The position numbers were made by a program, and so were the translations under genes. From Candidatus Wolfebacteria bacterium GW2011_GWB1_47_1 (lineage in GTDB: Bacteria; Patescibacteriota; Minisyncoccia; UBA6257; UBA9933): 64,000 nucleotides of DNA. The notes below the pieces were generated by a model that was not told the origin of the DNA, ran no database searches, and saw only the letters and a program-made list of their open reading frames with translations. Of this stretch, positions 6,540-59,735 are shown piece after piece (within the stretch, counting starts at the first letter, position 1; every line of letters begins with the position of its first letter). The stretch covers positions 551,774 through 615,773 of the forward strand of contig CP011209.1 of assembly GCA_001029635.1 (NCBI GenBank). Reading direction: 5' to 3'.

Positions 6540-8318
6540 TTATCGGCTCATGCGCCCGCTCCCTGTCGGGAAGAGACTTGGAGCTGTTTGTGTGGTCGCG
6601 CTTGTTGTTGTGATTGTGCGCGTAATAATCTGGTCTCCTTCTTTGAGTCCGGAAACTATTTCCGTTGTTGTGTCATTTGCAATGCCGATCGTTACCGGCC
6701 TTCTTATTGGCGTTGCCGAAGCAATGACTCCCTGTGTTCCCGTTGCGTTTTCTAGTGGAACTTCGAATATCTCCACATAACTCAACTCTCCTTGTGTTTT
6801 TATGGCGCTATTGGGCACTGTGAGCACATCTTGCTTCATATCGATAATGATCGAAGCACTTACGCTCATACCCGGTTTAATGCGATCATCTTGCGTATCA
6901 AAACCAATCTTTACCGTATAGGTGACCACCCCTTGCGAAACCGTTCCTACGGTGTCGATCTCTGCGACCGAGCCACTGATACTCAGTTCTTCGACTGCGT
7001 CGAAATTTAGCGTAGTCTTTTGTCCAACTTTCACTTTTGCCACATCCACTTCGTTGAGTGAAATCTCGGCAATTTTCTGCTTTGTGATTAATGTCGCGAT
7101 CGATGTACCAGATGACAGTGTATCTGATCGTTTGACTGTTAGGGTCGCTATGGTTCCGGCAAATGGCGCGCGGATATAATAGTCGGCGAGCTTTTCGCGC
7201 GCATCCAACAATGCGTTCTCCCTTTGGCGAACGATCAGCTCCTGGGCTTGCAAATCAAGCTGATCGGTACCTGCCTTGAGATCGGCGATATATTCGGTCT
7301 TTTCCGCTATCGTGCGATCTGCGTTCGTGATCGCATCCTTGCTGTTCTTAATTGTGTTCTTTGTTGCGAGCAGATTCAGCAGATGGGTATTTGTCGTTCC
7401 CGTGTATGTATTGAGAGTTGACTTGTGAGCATCCACCGTAGCGGGGATGGTTGCATTTACGTTGTTTTTCGTTAGGGAGTCTTTTACGAAGTCAATGAGG
7501 TTGTTGCCGGTTTTTACCGCATCAGCGATTGTTCGTGTGGTCGTATATGTTTCGTCGACGAGTGTCTCCATTATTTGGGTGCTTGATGTTCTTGAAGCCG
7601 CCTTGTAGTTATCGAAATTCTTCGCGTATGTCGTTCGCGATGCATTATATCCCGCATAGAAATCGTTCTGATATTGGTTCGCTTTTTCGCGTTCGCCTAC
7701 TATTTGTAGTGATGTTTGGTTAATATACCAGTTGATGTTTGGCATTCCCTGGTCGATCGTCGCGTCGAAAAATATATCATCCAATCCGGTCATGATTGTT
7801 GGGAGATCGAGGAATGTGTTTGCGATCCCATTAAAACCGTCGTCGTATGCCTTCTTGAGGTCGTCTTCGGCGTTTTGTTTTGTCTGTTGTGCTTGAGCGA
7901 GCGCATTCTCCGCTTGGATCACCGAGAGATTATTAGCAGGTTTCTTGAGCTTTTCGAGGGACAGTTTTGCACTTTGGAGATTTACCTCCGCATCGCGCAC
8001 CACTTTTTGCGCTTCGCGTGCATCGAGCTGGGCGATGAGGGCACCTGTGCCAACTTCCTGCCCATTGACTACATTAATCGCGACAATATCGCCTGATGCG
8101 CGTGATTTGAGCTCTACCTGATTGGAAGCCGATACCTGTCCTGTTCCGCTGATCGACGTAATAATAGATCCCGTTTCTGTAAGCGCGGTTACATAGCGTG
8201 GTTCCGTACTGGTATCGGTTAGTTTGCCATACCCCCAATAGGCAAATAGCGCTAGTACGATAATACTTGTGACTGAGATTATTTTATGGGCTGAAATATA
8301 TTTTTTTATGTGTTGCAT
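6540..8318 (-). CDS. HlyD/MacA-family periplasmic adaptor with very long coiled-coil hairpin
   Basis: 592 aa; N-terminal TM, beta-barrel/lipoyl segments flanking a ~250 aa coiled coil; first gene of the adaptor-ATPase-permease operon. Confidence 0.7.
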   Translation of the reverse strand: MQHIKKYISAHKIISVTSIIVLALFAYWGYGKLTDTSTEPRYVTALTETGSIITSISGTGQVSASNQVELKSRASGDIVAINVVNGQEVGTGALIAQLDAREAQKVVRDAEVNLQSAKLSLEKLKKPANNLSVIQAENALAQAQQTKQNAEDDLKKAYDDGFNGIANTFLDLPTIMTGLDDIFFDATIDQGMPNINWYINQTSLQIVGEREKANQYQNDFYAGYNASRTTYAKNFDNYKAASRTSSTQIMETLVDETYTTTRTIADAVKTGNNLIDFVKDSLTKNNVNATIPATVDAHKSTLNTYTGTTNTHLLNLLATKNTIKNSKDAITNADRTIAEKTEYIADLKAGTDQLDLQAQELIVRQRENALLDAREKLADYYIRAPFAGTIATLTVKRSDTLSSGTSIATLITKQKIAEISLNEVDVAKVKVGQKTTLNFDAVEELSISGSVAEIDTVGTVSQGVVTYTVKIGFDTQDDRIKPGMSVSASIIIDMKQDVLTVPNSAIKTQGELSYVEIFEVPLENATGTQGVIASATPIRRPVTIGIANDTTTEIVSGLKEGDQIITRTITTTSATTQTAPSLFPTGSGRMSR

Positions 8319-8441: not shown

Positions 8442-9215
8442 ATGAACCATCAGCGAAACACTCTTGTTGAGTCCGCGGTCAAAGTCCTTGCATTTAGTTG
8501 GATCGCATGGTTTTTGTTTCCGGTTCTTTTCTTGATCGGATCGTTTATGTTTAAATTTTCTGCCATGCAGCCGATTCTTACGGATGACCGCTTTTGGTGG
8601 GCGTTTGGTATCAGCTTGATTTCCGCGTTCGTTGTCGTTGCGTTGACGGCTTTGTTTGTTGTCCCTATGGCATATTTTCTCGCGTACGGGGACTTTCGTG
8701 GGAAGAAGTTTTTAGAAACGCTTCTTATAGATATCCCTCAGACATTGCCACCGGTTGCGGTGGGTGTTATCTATGTATTTGCGTTCGGCGTTAATTCGCC
8801 GATCCATCTTGCGTTCACGTTCCTCGCCGTTGTCATTGCGAAGCTGATTGTATCGGCTCCGTTCGCACTTGGATATGTGTTGCGCAGGTTTCGTGAAATT
8901 CGCACATTGAAGATCGATCTGGTTGCGCGGTCATTGGGTGCGAATACGTATACCGTGATCTTCCGCGTATTGGTACCGATGGCGCGACAGGATATTATTG
9001 CGGGGTTGACGTTGGTATGGGCTCGGGCGATGGGTGAGTTTGGTGGCTCATTGATCTTTGCCGGGGTGGTTGCCTACAAAACCGAGATACTTCCGACGTA
9101 TGCGAATCGCGTTGTGCATGTGGATCCACTGCTTGCGTTGGGTGCAACCGCGATTATGGTCCTTTTTGCACTGGTCGCATTGACCGTAACCAGGACCGTG
9201 TTGATGAAAAAATGA
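8442..9215 (+). CDS. ABC importer permease (ModB/CysTW-like, molybdate/tungstate/sulfate class)
   Basis: 257 aa multi-TM; EAA-type loop ...ARSLGANTYTVIFRVLVPMARQDIIAG... Confidence 0.65.
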   Translation: MNHQRNTLVESAVKVLAFSWIAWFLFPVLFLIGSFMFKFSAMQPILTDDRFWWAFGISLISAFVVVALTALFVVPMAYFLAYGDFRGKKFLETLLIDIPQTLPPVAVGVIYVFAFGVNSPIHLAFTFLAVVIAKLIVSAPFALGYVLRRFREIRTLKIDLVARSLGANTYTVIFRVLVPMARQDIIAGLTLVWARAMGEFGGSLIFAGVVAYKTEILPTYANRVVHVDPLLALGATAIMVLFALVALTVTRTVLMKK

Positions 9216-9227
9216 ATTAAAACAACC

Positions 9228-9878
9228 ATGGCATTCTTGGAAATTAATAATCTGACAAAATCATACGGTGGACATCCTGTTTTGAAGCGACTTTCGCTAT
9301 CGATCGAGGAGGGCGAGATTGTTGCAATCATGGGCAAATCGGGCGTCGGCAAGACAACATTGTTGTCGTGCATTCTTGGATTCGAACAGGCGGATGCCGG
9401 CACGATCATATTGGACGGTAGTAATATCGTGGAGTACTCCATTGAGGACCGGCAATTGGCATATGTCCCTCAGGATTATGGGTTATTTCCTCACTTGTCG
9501 GTGCACGATAATATCGCTTTTGGCTTGATGGCACGCAAAGCATCTTTAGATGTGATCGATCGGCGCGTGCATGAACTATTACAGGTCGTTGATTTGCCAC
9601 AATCGATCGCGAAGCGGGATGTGCATACACTTTCTGGCGGAGAGCGGCAACGGGTTGCTTTGGCGAGGGCATTGGCGATTAAGCCACAGTTATTTTTATT
9701 TGATGAACCACTTTCTGCGGTCGATCAAGAGACTCGTAGGGATGTGGGGAATAGTCTGCGCGATCTTATTAAGCGACTTGGGATCTCTGCAGTCGTTATT
9801 ACGCACGATCCGAGTGATGCAGGAGTACTTGCCGATACGATCTATCGGTTAGAGGAGGGAATAGTGCGTAAAATATAA
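9228..9878 (+). CDS. ABC transporter ATP-binding protein (short, no C-terminal regulatory domain)
   Basis: Walker A GKSGVGKTT, signature LSGGERQRVALARAL, Walker B LFLFDEP. Confidence 0.85.
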   Translation: MAFLEINNLTKSYGGHPVLKRLSLSIEEGEIVAIMGKSGVGKTTLLSCILGFEQADAGTIILDGSNIVEYSIEDRQLAYVPQDYGLFPHLSVHDNIAFGLMARKASLDVIDRRVHELLQVVDLPQSIAKRDVHTLSGGERQRVALARALAIKPQLFLFDEPLSAVDQETRRDVGNSLRDLIKRLGISAVVITHDPSDAGVLADTIYRLEEGIVRKI

Positions 9879-10005
9879 GACCACACTTGACTATATTTGG
9901 CAATGGGTTTATGCTCTAGGCAGAACCAATTACATGTGAGGAGGTGAGTCGTTCGGCGGTTGTCATTAGGTTACATTCCTTAACCTCGAAAACCTGGAGG
10001 AAGTT

Positions 10006-10284
10006 ATGAAAGGGTATCATACTTGGAAGCCGATGCATGCGTATGTGGGCACTTGGACTGAACCGGGGACGAGTAAGTCCTATATGACTAACGTGCACGA
10101 TGTGCAGTGCACCGAATGTCATCGGATTGTTACGCTCCCGGTCATTCTCATGCCGGATGAGCTTGAGGGGTGCCTTGGGACTGCCGCGCGGCCGGTCAAA
10201 AAACGGGAGGAGGATCCTGTCGGATTTGACAAGGATGCGGATTACGGGGAGGGGGCTCGGAAGGTTCAACACCTACGGGTGTAA
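10006..10284 (+). CDS. small hypothetical protein (92 aa)
   Basis: TGGAGGAAGTT SD before ATG; own terminator downstream. Confidence 0.45.
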   Translation: MKGYHTWKPMHAYVGTWTEPGTSKSYMTNVHDVQCTECHRIVTLPVILMPDELEGCLGTAARPVKKREEDPVGFDKDADYGEGARKVQHLRV

Positions 10285-10376: not shown

Positions 10377-10937
10377 ATGAACCAAGTACGGCGAACAATC
10401 ATATTATGCGATCGGCCAATAGACTATGATCTGAAAAAAAACAAGCGCGTAAAGCGCATGCGTTTTTCGGTTGGACCTGGGGGTTCGCTTGTCGTCACAA
10501 TCCCATATCGATTTCCTGAGCAACTAGTTGAACGATTTATGCATGAACATGCGCAGTGGATCATCACTCAAATCGAGCGGTTCCGACAACAAGGCGGGCG
10601 ATTAAGTCGATATGGGCGTGATCACTATCTCGAACATAAGGAAGCGGCTCGGCAATTGGCGCATGAACGACTTGCACATTTTAACCAGTTTTATGACTTT
10701 GATTATGGAGATATCAGTATTCGCGATCAAAAGACGCGTTGGGGGAGTTGTTCGCGTGCGGGCAATCTCAACTTCAATTATAAATTAGCGGTCGTGCCCG
10801 AACATATTGCTGACTATGTTATTGTACACGAATTATGTCACTGTAAAGAATTCAATCACTCCCCGCGATTTTGGAAATTAGTCGAGCAGACCATCCCTAA
10901 TCATAAAGAAATACGAAAACAGCTCCGATCATTTTGA
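10377..10937 (+). CDS. YgjP-like (DUF45/SprT-like) zinc metallopeptidase; start may be 10350
   Basis: HExxH in VIVHELCHCKEFNHSPRFWKLV, plus the family-typical N-terminus ...IDYDLKKNKRVKRMRFSV. Confidence 0.6.
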   Translation: MNQVRRTIILCDRPIDYDLKKNKRVKRMRFSVGPGGSLVVTIPYRFPEQLVERFMHEHAQWIITQIERFRQQGGRLSRYGRDHYLEHKEAARQLAHERLAHFNQFYDFDYGDISIRDQKTRWGSCSRAGNLNFNYKLAVVPEHIADYVIVHELCHCKEFNHSPRFWKLVEQTIPNHKEIRKQLRSF

Positions 10938-12134: not shown

Positions 12135-13769
12135 ATGAGCAAACCCCTCTTTTTTTCGACACTCAAGCTGAACTGGAAGTCAGGATTGACTGTTGCGTTG
12201 GTCGCATTACCGTTATCGCTTTCGCTCGGCGTTGCCGCCGGTGCAACACCATTGATGGGTGTCATCACCGCCATCTGGGCTGGACTTGTCGCCGCATTAT
12301 TTGGTGGTAGTAATTACAATGTTGTCGGTCCGACAGGAGCCTTGTCAGGTCTGTTAGCCACCTATGCGCTTATTCATGGTGCGGCTAGCCTGCCGTTTTT
12401 GGCAATCCTGAGCGGTTTCATCATTTTGCTTTTTTATGTGTTGCGATGGGAACGCTATATCGTGTTCATTCCTGCGAGCGTTGTGCATGGCTTTACGCTA
12501 GGTGTAGCGTTCATCATCGGATTGAATCAGCTTAATTTTGCGTTGGGATTAAAGGGGCTCCCAACTCACGAACGTTTCTTTGATAATGTACTTGAGTCCT
12601 TTGCGCATATTGGACAGACGAGCGGGGTCGCCGTTGTTTTGTTTGCCATCGCGCTCGCTGTGATTATTGCGTTGCGCATGTACGTACCACGCATTCCTGG
12701 CGCCATCGCCATTGCCCCGTTTGGTATTTTGATCGGATGGCTCGCCGAGCGTGGCATTGTTTCGTGGAATGTTCAGACGATCGCGTCAAAGTTTGGATCG
12801 ATTCCCAACCATATTGCCAGTATGCCGCATTTCTCATTGGATATGATCGGGCGACAGGCCGTTATTGCTGCACTTACGATTGCCGTTGTCGCTATCCTAG
12901 AGACCTTGATCTCCGCCAAGATTGCCGATGGGATGACCAAGACCAAATCAGATCAGCGCAAGGAAATGTTTGGACTTGGATTGGCAAATGTCGCCTCCGG
13001 ATTGTTTGGCGGGATTCCTGCGACCGCCGCACTTGCGCGCACGTCTCTTAATATCAAGAGCGGGGCGACGCATAAGATGTCCGCTGCTATTGCGGCGATT
13101 GGCGTTGTTATTATTGCGCTGGTCTTACTGAGTGGATTCCAATATCTACCACTCGCGTTCGTTGCCGCCATTCTTGTTTCGGTTGCATTGTTTATGGTGG
13201 AACGCGAGCAGTTTGTGCATCTGTATCATTTTGACAAGCGCGTGTTTGGACTTTCGTTCGTTGTGGCTGCCATCACGATCATCGAAGATCCGATCATGGG
13301 AATTCTTTTTGGATCGGTTATTGCATTGCTTATGTTTGTAAATACGCTTTCGTGGGCGCAGGGCGAGATCACCGTCAATAAGGGCGGAAAGATCGTTGGG
13401 CGGTATCGTTCTGACGAGTTGGAAACGCTCGAAGAGCATGGTGATGTTCTGGTCTATCGATTTGCTGGTCAGTTGACCTATATCAATGCGCAGGGACATC
13501 TTGAAGCATTGGCACAGATCAGTGATGAGACAAAGCAGGTGGTCCTTAGCTTCCGTAACCTGTTTTATATTGATATCGATGGTGTCGACGCTGTCGCAGA
13601 GATGATCGAGTTGCTCGAACAAAACGGCAAGACCGTGTATCTTTCCGGGGTGAATCGATTGGTCGGTGCAATGGTGAAGCGATCGGGATGGTATGGACAT
13701 CTCAAGGAGTCTGGGCGGATCTTTGAGTCTGCGTCTCAGGCGCTCAAGCAGCTTTCGGTTGACGCATAA
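12135..13769 (+). CDS. SulP-family anion transporter with C-terminal STAS domain
   Basis: 544 aa; multi-TM core plus C-terminal STAS-like segment (VLVYRFAGQLTYINAQ...). Confidence 0.85.
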   Translation: MSKPLFFSTLKLNWKSGLTVALVALPLSLSLGVAAGATPLMGVITAIWAGLVAALFGGSNYNVVGPTGALSGLLATYALIHGAASLPFLAILSGFIILLFYVLRWERYIVFIPASVVHGFTLGVAFIIGLNQLNFALGLKGLPTHERFFDNVLESFAHIGQTSGVAVVLFAIALAVIIALRMYVPRIPGAIAIAPFGILIGWLAERGIVSWNVQTIASKFGSIPNHIASMPHFSLDMIGRQAVIAALTIAVVAILETLISAKIADGMTKTKSDQRKEMFGLGLANVASGLFGGIPATAALARTSLNIKSGATHKMSAAIAAIGVVIIALVLLSGFQYLPLAFVAAILVSVALFMVEREQFVHLYHFDKRVFGLSFVVAAITIIEDPIMGILFGSVIALLMFVNTLSWAQGEITVNKGGKIVGRYRSDELETLEEHGDVLVYRFAGQLTYINAQGHLEALAQISDETKQVVLSFRNLFYIDIDGVDAVAEMIELLEQNGKTVYLSGVNRLVGAMVKRSGWYGHLKESGRIFESASQALKQLSVDA

Positions 13770-18309: not shown

Positions 18310-18351
18310 AAAAACGGGACTTGCAGCCTTTTTGATTGTTGAGGGTATTAT

Positions 18352-18386
18352 AAAGACCATACGCATCATGCGTATGGTCTTTATGT
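18352..18386 (-). terminator. long palindromic hairpin terminator downstream of tRNA-Leu (bidirectional)
   Basis: AAAGACCATACGCATCATGCGTATGGTCTTT, 14-bp stem. Confidence 0.65.
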
Positions 18387-24875: not shown

Positions 24876-24910
24876 ACACAAACACCGCCTTGAGGCGGTG
24901 TTTGTGTATA
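24876..24910 (+). terminator. 14-bp hairpin after the tRNA pair (terminator/processing stem)
   Basis: ACACAAACACCGCCTTGAGGCGGTGTTTGTGT; no long U-run. Confidence 0.5.
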
Positions 24911-42688: not shown

Positions 42689-42699
42689 TCAAACGCAAA

Positions 42700-42735
42700 A
42701 AAGAGCATATCAGTGCTCTTTTTTGCGCTTGCGTG
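42700..42735 (+). terminator. rho-independent terminator
   Basis: AAAAAGAGCATATCAGTGCTCTTTTTT. Confidence 0.7.
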
Positions 42736-52840: not shown

Positions 52841-52867
52841 CATGTACGTCTTGCGATGACGTACATG
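52841..52867. repeat. perfect 10-bp inverted repeat (REP-like variant) at the island boundary
   Basis: CATGTACGTC-TTGCGAT-GACGTACATG. Confidence 0.5.
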
Positions 52868-52963
52868 TAAAAAAAGCCGGGCATAATGCCCGGCTTTACG
52901 ATCATTTAAGGATGTCTTGCGTCGGCGCATAGCGACATCGCTGTCCAAAACGCGACATTTATT

Positions 52964-52988
52964 TTTCCGTCATCGAATGACGGAAAAT
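52964..52988. repeat. REP-like palindrome, 5' flank of the RAYT gene
   Basis: TTTTCCGTCATCGAATGACGGAAAA. Confidence 0.75.
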
Positions 52989-53007
52989 CCATGCTATACT
53001 GTAATAT

Positions 53008-53694
53008 ATGGCTGATTTATATCATGTATTAAATAGGGGGGTTGATAAGAAGAAAATTTTTATAGATGATCAGGACCATTTTCGATTCGTCCATGATCTC
53101 TACGAATTTAATGACGTCGAATCCGCTGATTACATAAGAAATAGCAGGAAGCTTTTTATTAAAGCTAATTTTCCGTCATTCGATGACGGAAAATTAGAAG
53201 AGAGGCAGTCATTAGTGCATGTTCATGCATTTTGTTTAATGCCCAATCACTACCATTTACTACTTAGTCCTGTGGTTGAGGGAGGGATTCCAAAGTTTAT
53301 GAAGAAGTTGAACATGGGGTACTCGCGGTATTTCAATGAGCGGTATGAGCGGAAGGGGACATTGTTTGAAGGAAGATATAAATCAGTTCCAGTGGCGGCG
53401 CAAGCACACTTTATTCATCTGCCATACTATATTCACTTGAATCCATTAGACATGTTCGACTATGGATGGCGGGATCACGCAGTACATAACCATGCCGATG
53501 CAATGCACTATCTTGAGCAGTATCGTTGGTCGAGTCATCTGGATTATCTTGGCAAGAAAAATTTCCCTTCGGTCACACAGCGGGATTTCCTGCTTGAGTT
53601 TTTTGGAGGGCATGAGGGGTATGCGCGGGCACTTGATCGATGGGTGAGGGATATTAGTGTCGGGGATATCCAAGATGTTTTGTTGGAAATATAA
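53008..53694 (+). mobile_element. IS200-like HUH (Y1) tyrosine transposase of the REP-associated (RAYT) type, 228 aa
   Basis: YHVLNRG N-terminus, HUH motif LMPNHYHLLL, catalytic Tyr in EGRYKSV; flanked by inverted REP palindromes. Confidence 0.75.
53168..53192. repeat. REP-like palindrome copy inside the RAYT ORF (in-frame, encodes NFPSFDDGK)
   Basis: TTTTCCGTCATTCGATGACGGAAAA, same orientation as the 3' flank copy. Confidence 0.7.
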
Positions 53695-53720
53695 TATTCC
53701 GTCATTCGATGACGGAATAT
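53694..53720. repeat. REP-like palindrome, 3' flank of RAYT, inverted relative to the 5' copy
   Basis: ATATTCCGTCATTCGATGACGGAATAT immediately after the stop codon. Confidence 0.75.
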
Positions 53721-53734
53721 TGGTATTGGGAATA

Positions 53735-53762
53735 AAAAAGCCGGGCTTGGAGCTCGGCTTTG
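53735..53762 (-). terminator. terminator hairpin (variant of the island terminator)
   Basis: AAAAAGCCGGGCTTGGAGCTCGGCTTT. Confidence 0.6.
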
Positions 53763-54232: not shown

Positions 54233-54263
54233 CGTAAAAAAGCCGGGCATAATGCCCGGCTTT
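54233..54263 (-). terminator. island terminator copy (GCCGGGCATAATGCCCGGC)
   Basis: hairpin then T-run on minus strand. Confidence 0.75.
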
Positions 54264-54726: not shown

Positions 54727-54755
54727 AAAAAAAGCCGGGCATAATTGCCCGGCTT
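54727..54755 (-). terminator. island terminator copy (GCCGGGCATAATTGCCCGGC)
   Basis: hairpin then T-run on minus strand. Confidence 0.75.
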
Positions 54756-59696: not shown

Positions 59697-59699
59697 CGA

Positions 59700-59735
59700 A
59701 AAAAATTCATGCGTTGCATGAATTTTTTTATTTTT
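59700..59735 (+). terminator. rho-independent terminator
   Basis: AAAAAAATTCATGCGTTGCATGAATTTTTTT. Confidence 0.75.

Follow-up and report, generated by a model that had tools for sequence, protein, structure and literature searches.

Within a 64,000-nt stretch of the Candidatus Wolfebacteria bacterium GW2011_GWB1_47_1 genome (contig CP011209.1, positions 551,774 to 615,773; the whole stretch is referred to here as the window), the gene at 53008-53694 (+ strand) encodes a Y1/HUH protein of 228 amino acids (aa) and is accompanied by four hairpins: two upstream of the coding sequence (U2 and U1), one in frame within it (I) and one at its stop codon (D). A first-pass annotation had described the gene as a tyrosine transposase of the kind linked to repetitive extragenic palindromes (REPs), or RAYT, lying between two inverted REPs. 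We conclude that the locus is probably a domesticated, vertically inherited gene for a class-2 Y1/HUH single-stranded DNA (ssDNA) nuclease/strand-transferase together with its own cognate hairpins, RAYT-like and nearest to subclass 2.1/TIRYT; that is, a minimal REPtron/TIRtron with hairpins that, as far as seen, occur at the gene alone. The three-site layout is conserved among homologous loci, the stems have evolved by compensatory change, the catalytic motifs are intact and conserved, the modelled protein has a Y1 fold and the chromosomal position of the gene is fixed.

The open reading frame (ORF) translates, as the first-pass annotation had read it, into a product with the motifs YHVLNRG, NHYHLLL (given there as HYHLLL) and EGRYKSV. 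The Pfam model Y1_Tnp (PF01797), which had been suggested as a check, matched at 39.4 bits against a gathering cut-off of 23 (E 7.6e-10), placing the protein in the Y1/HUH transposase superfamily. The NCBIfam RAYT equivalog REP_Tyr_transpos (NF047646) was matched at 33.7 bits (E 3e-8) over residues 65-147 only, and its cut-off of 80 was not reached. Thirty-five columns are invariant in an alignment of 109 homologues. The HUH motif, H81-Y82-H83 (codons 53248-53256, + strand), lies inside NHYH, an instance of the NH[YF]H motif of subclass 2.1, and both histidines are invariant (n = 109). Similarly, Y141, H143 and N145 of the Y motif YIHLNP (codons 53428-53445, + strand) are invariant, and P146 is invariant or nearly so, in alignments of 24 and 109 homologues. 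Proteins with the signature Y---NP belong to class 2 (RAYT-like), those with Y---Q to class 1 (IS200; Quentin et al., 2018). In E. coli TnpA_REP the catalytic tyrosine is Y115, with N119 four residues further. By its Y---NP motif the protein is a class-2 TnpA_Y1 (RAYT-like), and, because of this motif and the TnpA_REP equivalents Y115/N119, Y141 is the predicted catalytic tyrosine and N145 the predicted metal ligand. The first-pass annotation had assigned the catalytic tyrosine to EGRYKSV; that stretch instead occupies the position of the 'W/FQ' motif, which reads FE (LFEGRY) in this protein.

Subclass 2.1 (Quentin et al., 2018, Table 1), which corresponds to Bertels group 1 and largely to the TIRYT or 'TIRtron' genes of Di Nocera et al. 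(2013), is characterised by NH[YF]H, FQ or W[EQ], Y[IV]HLNP, an SS tail and proteins with a median of ~238 aa; Quentin et al. identified no REPs belonging to it. With NHYH, YIHLNP, the WSS tail motif (YRWSSH) and 228 aa, the window protein fits this subclass in a comparison made at the level of motifs rather than by a subclass hidden Markov model or a phylogeny; its FE is one residue off the expected FQ or W[EQ]. A C-terminal helix-turn-helix (HTH)-like distal tail (Bac_DnaA_C, HTH_23, HTH_28), another feature of the subclass, was not detected, a Pfam scan at E <= 1 giving Y1_Tnp alone; residues 150-216 form a helical tail in the model. This AlphaFold (AF2) model has a predicted local distance difference test (pLDDT) score of 86.5 and a predicted template modelling (pTM) score of 0.83, with linker residues 43-60 below a pLDDT of 50. 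When it was searched with Foldseek, the best PDB matches were ISDra2 TnpA, E. coli TnpA_REP (4er8), IS608 TnpA and IS200, and all of the top 30 matches were Y1 transposases. A PDB search by sequence returned only weak ISDra2 TnpA matches around HUH and missed 4er8, so the fold search was required to recover it.

Upstream of the gene, U1 (TTTTCCGTCAT-CGA-ATGACGGAAAA, 52963-52987, - strand) ends 20 nt before the ATG and carries the 21-mer TTCCGTCATCGAATGACGGAA at 52965-52985 within its perfect stem. Two bases past the TAA, at 53697-53717, the reverse complement TTCCGTCATTCGATGACGGAA is found within D (AATATTCCGTCAT-TCG-ATGACGGAATATT, 53693-53721, + strand), whose 13-bp stem overlaps the final two bases of the stop codon. 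Both of these palindromes had been reported by the first-pass annotation at these places. Two further elements had been missed. A third exact copy of the 21-mer, at 53171-53191, lies inside the gene in hairpin I (CTAATTTTCCGTCAT-TCG-ATGACGGAAAATTAG, 53165-53197, + strand, 15-bp stem), which is in frame at aa 53-63 (..ANFPSFDDGKL.., the 21-mer copy reading NFPSFDDGK) and falls in the variable, disordered linker N-terminal to the HUH motif. The distal upstream hairpin U2 (CATGTACGTC-TTGCGAT-GACGTACATG, 52841-52867, + strand) has a 10-bp stem unlike those of U1, I and D and a 7-nt loop, TTGCGAT, that is typical of the family and is also found at the homologous loci L083, L092, L093, L094 and L095; the core CGTC...GATGACG is common to all four hairpins. 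With filters off, a covariance model built for the hairpin (R1) picked out four sites only in the whole window, all at the gene (E <= 3.5e-3; next match E = 1.1): U2 at 38.7 bits (E 2.9e-8), U1 at 35.7 bits (on the - strand), I at 40.4 bits and D at 39.5 bits. Oriented by their loops, these are (+), (-), (+) and (+), respectively. For the 17-nt core, 0.03 occurrences are expected in 64 kb and three are present, a count that none of 100 shuffles reached. As ssDNA, the predicted folding energies are -9.8 kcal/mol for U2 (z -3.4), -10.4 for U1 (z -5.0), -14.6 for I (z -8.5) and -11.9 for D (z -6.3).

We then surveyed 12 homologous loci with 56-100% protein identity. In all 12, near-perfect hairpins specific to the locus stand 10-35 nt ahead of the ATG and again 0-20 nt past the stop codon or overlapping it. 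Cognate palindromes flank the gene, as they do in RAYT/TnpA_REP systems, both in the window (U1, U2 and D) and at the 12 homologous loci (upstream and downstream). Eight of the 12 also have an intragenic hairpin at an offset of ~145-180 nt, in the same variable linker. The linker peptide is a translated hairpin, as for ATGGACGTCGGACGTCCATA, which is read as MDVGRPY, and at least 56 of the 109 family proteins have a hairpin-derived linker of the form xI[AV][SR][RP] (from the ATCGCAA loop) or DVxR[RP] (from GACGTCnGACGTC). In the four loci that lack an intragenic hairpin (L083, L092, L080 and L098) we looked for decayed remnants of one and claim none; the best matches fell at the expected offsets in L083 (p ~0.13) and L080 (p ~0.07) but were not significant.

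An alignment of 30 hairpins from nine loci, oriented by loop, showed a shared loop (TTGCGAT), inner stem ([CG]G[TA]C) and foot ((C)AATAT), the middle being variable. Changes on both sides are seen in 10 of the 12 stem pairs, and 86% of cells are paired versus 28-50% in slid controls, though some of the aligned sites were chosen by pairing and these covariation counts are accordingly inflated. Copies are near-identical within a locus and different between loci. In the window lineage, a derived 21-mer is present at U1, I and D, while U2 retains the older TTGCGAT type still used by syntenic relatives. On the aligned sequences, the pattern is one of concerted change at fixed positions. The relative orientation of the copies varies: the upstream hairpin is inverted with respect to the intragenic and downstream hairpins in the window, L093, L090 and L104, the order is +,-,+ in L094, and all copies are direct in L095 and L098.

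Some loci carry other kinds of element. In L098, the upstream and downstream elements (9958-9996 and 10704-10742) are 36-nt direct repeats, TTTTCAATATTTACGTCTTGCGGTTACGTAAATTTT, forming an imperfect hairpin; this locus has no intragenic copy and its linker is lysine-rich. The family member P0074, in L100, has AATCTCACGCA-GTCAGAG-TGCGTGAGATT, a hairpin of quite another kind, at the corresponding three positions (8220-8270, 8446-8474 and 8974-9002), the upstream site being an inverted dimer. Finally, 3´ of the homologue in L104, a contig labelled KSB1, there is an array at 936-1133 that resembles a bacterial interspersed mosaic element (BIME), with four hairpins that share the core GACGTC(C/G)GACGTC and differ in their outer stems.

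The gene behaves as a resident of its chromosomal site. The window has one copy of it, among neighbours that encode an MFS protein, small membrane proteins, UvrA and UvrC. In L083 and L092 (77% aa identity), the gene is at the same site, in the order uvrB-uvrA-MFS-[Y1]-small membrane ORF-uvrC-patatin, within 15 kb that are ~75% identical in DNA to the window. On all 24 contigs read that encode the identical protein, which come from different samples, the context is the same, and two of them are identical to the window over 6.7 kb; P0074 has one context on 21 contigs. Such low copy number and vertical inheritance are what is expected of RAYT/TnpA_REP genes; the multiple near-identical copies that mark mobile IS200/IS605 elements are not seen in the window. 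More distant homologues are found among unrelated housekeeping genes. A hairpin as the point of rearrangement between L080 and L082 was considered and rejected, the similarity running ~540 bp beyond the gene. The first-pass annotation had taken the gene to be unusual for a compact genome of this kind, but it has thousands of close homologues in Parcubacteria: the family has >7,800 matches among 90% clusters and 689 clusters at 50% identity with E <= 1e-30, and its named members come from several Parcubacteria lineages. A scan of viral contigs with the family profile found no relatives.

A classical RAYT/REP system, in which the hairpins are REPs spread by the enzyme and many copies lie outside the window, shares much with what we observed. 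Like canonical RAYT/TnpA_REP REPtrons (E. coli YafM, PDB 4er8; Pseudomonas group 3; subclasses 2.2 and 2.5), the locus has a single-copy, vertically inherited class-2 Y---NP enzyme with a fold matching 4er8 and cognate flanking palindromes that co-evolve with the gene and are often inverted, as U1 is relative to D. To this extent the first-pass description of a RAYT between inverted palindromes stands. However, the RAYT cut-off was missed (33.7 vs 80 bits), inverted flanks are common but not universal among the homologous loci, and the GT[AG]G tag found 5´ of canonical REPs is absent, no GTAG or GTGG adjoining the aligned hairpins, whose foot is (C)AATAT / ATATT(G). The window protein is also ~60 aa longer than those of canonical REPtrons, and its stems are perfect, without the bulge needed by E. 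coli TnpA_REP. CGTC-tagged REPs (Di Nocera et al.) were considered as well, the stems containing CGTC, and were rejected: that tag is an unpaired 5´ end, whereas CGTC here is paired inner stem and becomes CGAC or GGTC in relatives.

REPs are recognised by many palindrome copies dispersed in the extragenic space of the same genome (a high flanking 16-mer frequency). The window is ~6.5% of a ~1 Mb genome. In its other ~63 kb the unfiltered covariance model finds no copy, and the 17-nt core has none outside the Y1 locus in the 64 kb. Loop heptamers carried on a stem of >=4 bp are restricted to the gene across 198 kb of nine genomes, and copies with <=4 mismatches elsewhere in the nine loci are limited to one, in L095, 560 nt 3´ of the gene. 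R1 matches over 176 kb of relatives (E <= 0.02) were all at the gene except two, both in L080, a Wolfebacteria relative with family hairpins at 13483-13509 and 1302-1330, one of which is intergenic. The other, ATATATCGACGTCGGACGTCGATATAT (36 bits with R1), lies in frame inside a gene for a 1428-aa LTD-domain protein, where it encodes the peptide NISTSDVDIS; in type it corresponds to the L088 hairpin and differs from those of the L080 gene itself, a hint of a second Y1 paralogue that has hairpins of its own and of dispersal at low copy number into coding sequence. A 17-mer scan of a genome contig collection without the source genome gave 79 single chance matches in unrelated, mostly high-GC genomes, and a 19-mer scan of a metagenome contig collection without the source locus gave four unrelated matches. 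The L080 hairpins and the BIME-like cluster of four hairpins in L104 speak for a classical system. Against it stand the scarcity of copies in the sequence covered, which shows nothing resembling a REP population, a motif set that fits the subclass for which Quentin et al. found no REPs, and a compact genome with little extragenic space, and we regard this explanation as unlikely.

We regard an autonomous IS200-type insertion sequence (IS), with the upstream and downstream hairpins as left- and right-end (LE/RE) subterminal hairpins and a ~760-bp unit transposing via a single-stranded circle, as very unlikely. The resemblance to IS200 (class 1.1 TnpA_IS200; IS200/IS605) is real: a Y1/HUH fold, a compact gene with subterminal hairpins just outside it in a unit of about IS200 size, expected recognition of hairpins in ssDNA, and a structural match to ISDra2/IS608 TnpA as good as that to TnpA_REP. 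The 36-nt direct repeats of L098, the single orientation of all copies in L095 and the unrelated contexts of distant homologues also fit. The Y motif, however, is Y---NP rather than the Y---Q of class 1.1, and IS200 enzymes are of ~150 aa, multi-copy and near-identical, often with tnpB, none of which holds here; the accompanying TnpB that the first-pass annotation had named as a mark of canonical IS200/IS605 is lacking, with no tnpB-like ORF in the window and one Y1 gene copy in its 64 kb. IS200 has its LE and RE on one strand, while U1 and D are inverted. Synteny is kept at ~75% nucleotide identity and context in the 24 and in the 21 independent contigs, and the protein is highly conserved across a phylum-level group, which argues for purifying selection on a host gene.

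It is hardly probable at all that the palindromes are not enzyme substrates and serve as ordinary regulatory elements (operators in double-stranded DNA that a dimeric regulator would bind, or hairpins in RNA that would control transcription, translation or mRNA stability), with the intragenic one a neutral passenger: U1 does lie between a terminator and the ATG, beside a -10-like hexamer (TATACT), D is at the 3´ end of the message and the intragenic copy is dispensable and in a disordered loop, but compensatory changes maintain perfect pairing within the strand over 9-15 bp, which argues for a hairpin rather than two half-sites, the loop orientation on the coding strand varies by locus, so that RNA would present different loops, D has no downstream T-run and separate canonical terminators are present at 52873-52897 and 53737-53761, no Rfam family was matched at the gathering score (the sub-threshold matches being the neighbouring terminators), and all characterised Y1 enzymes use hairpins flanking their own gene. 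A sigma-70 scan upstream of the gene gave no convincing promoter.

Of the described groups, subclass 2.1/TIRYT remains nearest, sharing with the window locus, besides its motifs, low copy number, the lack (here, as far as seen) of a dispersed REP family and gene-local self-complementary repeats; among the repeats that flank TIRYT genes, some are self-complementary throughout and many are found nowhere but at the gene (Di Nocera et al., 2013). It differs in having long terminal inverted repeats, often GGGGWSAS, rather than perfect hairpins of 21-33 nt with a TTGCGAT loop and (C)AATAT foot. The in-frame intragenic copy sets the present locus apart, as do its hosts, Parcubacteria of the Candidate Phyla Radiation (CPR), which are unmentioned in the subclass 2.1/TIRYT descriptions compared. 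Subclass 2.4 RAYTs of Cyanobacteria and Bacteroidetes likewise have cognate palindromes in frame inside the enzyme gene, in a peripheral variable region of the protein. There, however, the REP lies between HuH and Y, whereas aa 53-63 here are upstream of the HuH (H81); the motifs are NH[IFV]H, WQ and YIxNNP; and the REPs are long, GTAG 'double-foot' and dispersed. In-frame palindromes inside a RAYT gene (subclass 2.4) and gene-local self-complementary repeats (some TIRYTs) are therefore already known. We found no description in the literature of the CPR Y1 family or of its layout of upstream, intragenic and stop-codon hairpins.

If the locus is indeed a domesticated enzyme gene with its own hairpins, the protein would recognise the perfect hairpins in ssDNA during replication or transcription, by analogy with IS608/ISDra2 TnpA and E. 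coli TnpA_REP, and would cut and rejoin near the hairpin foot via HUH (H81 and H83) and Y141, as the intact invariant motifs suggest. Given that copies are identical within loci and change in compensatory fashion between them, the activity of the enzyme, or short-tract conversion that it promotes, may keep the copies of one locus alike while genomes diverge. The gene itself is immobile on the observed time scale, as its synteny and fixed context show. Lying in a disordered surface linker, the intragenic copy is tolerated by the protein; it probably provides an additional binding or autoregulatory site, and the upstream copy might likewise be autoregulatory, both roles being speculative.

Several observations weigh against this interpretation. 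Binding and cleavage of the hairpins by the protein are presumed from homology. The NCBIfam RAYT model was missed, the GTAG tag is absent and the HTH tail went undetected by Pfam. The intragenic copy is absent in four of 12 loci with an intact gene and is thus dispensable, and the loop orientation of the upstream, intragenic and downstream copies differs from locus to locus, which does not obviously serve a strand-specific mechanism of the IS608 LE/RE kind. To these can be added the inflated covariation counts, the off-gene hairpins of L080, which amount to low-copy dispersal in at least one relative, and a dispersed population that may exist elsewhere in the genome, the window being so small a part of it.

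The surroundings of the locus appear to have undergone a local expansion of their own. The terminator hairpin AAAGCCGGGCATAATGCCCGGCTTT, 25 nt long, has two identical copies in 1.4 kb (52873-52897 and 54239-54263), with close variants at 53737-53761 and 54732-54755. These terminators bracket three small - strand ORFs (129, 119 and 105 aa), the first two of which are paralogues with 22% identity. Between the Y1 gene and uvrC, the window has ~0.9 kb more than L083 (53744-55117 versus 9627-10071), the rest of the 15 kb being collinear at ~67-78% identity. The syntenic L083 has one such small ORF, and the window looks like a local expansion of gene and terminator. Elsewhere, long perfect hairpins with 14-16-bp stems at 18350-18384, 24876-24907, 42694-42727 and 59699-59729 are unrelated in sequence to the Y1-associated family and are probably terminators.

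A further reading goes beyond the domesticated gene, and we put it forward tentatively, as possible though doubtful: the upstream, in-frame and stop-codon hairpins might together form a functional and self-contained module belonging to a domesticated, Parcubacteria-wide HUH enzyme that acts on the ssDNA or RNA of its own gene, for autoregulation or programmed local DNA processing, and rewrites all sites in concert. The intragenic hairpin would then be a selected cis-element that dictates protein sequence and not a passenger, and the system would amount to a REPtron pared down to a minimum in ultra-small genomes. We know of no established host role for RAYT-type domesticated transposases. Dispersed REP populations complicate the study of how such enzymes relate to their hairpins. 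This very large, well-conserved family of tiny CPR genomes appears to keep local hairpins only, among them an intragenic copy that specifies ~10 codons of the disordered linker of the enzyme and changes together with the copies on either side. With its hundreds of naturally occurring stem variants, the family could serve as a minimal system for comparative work on recognition rules, concerted hairpin replacement and self-regulation. It also corrects the annotation of these genomes, in which CPR 'transposase' genes of this Y1 family behave as fixed host genes.

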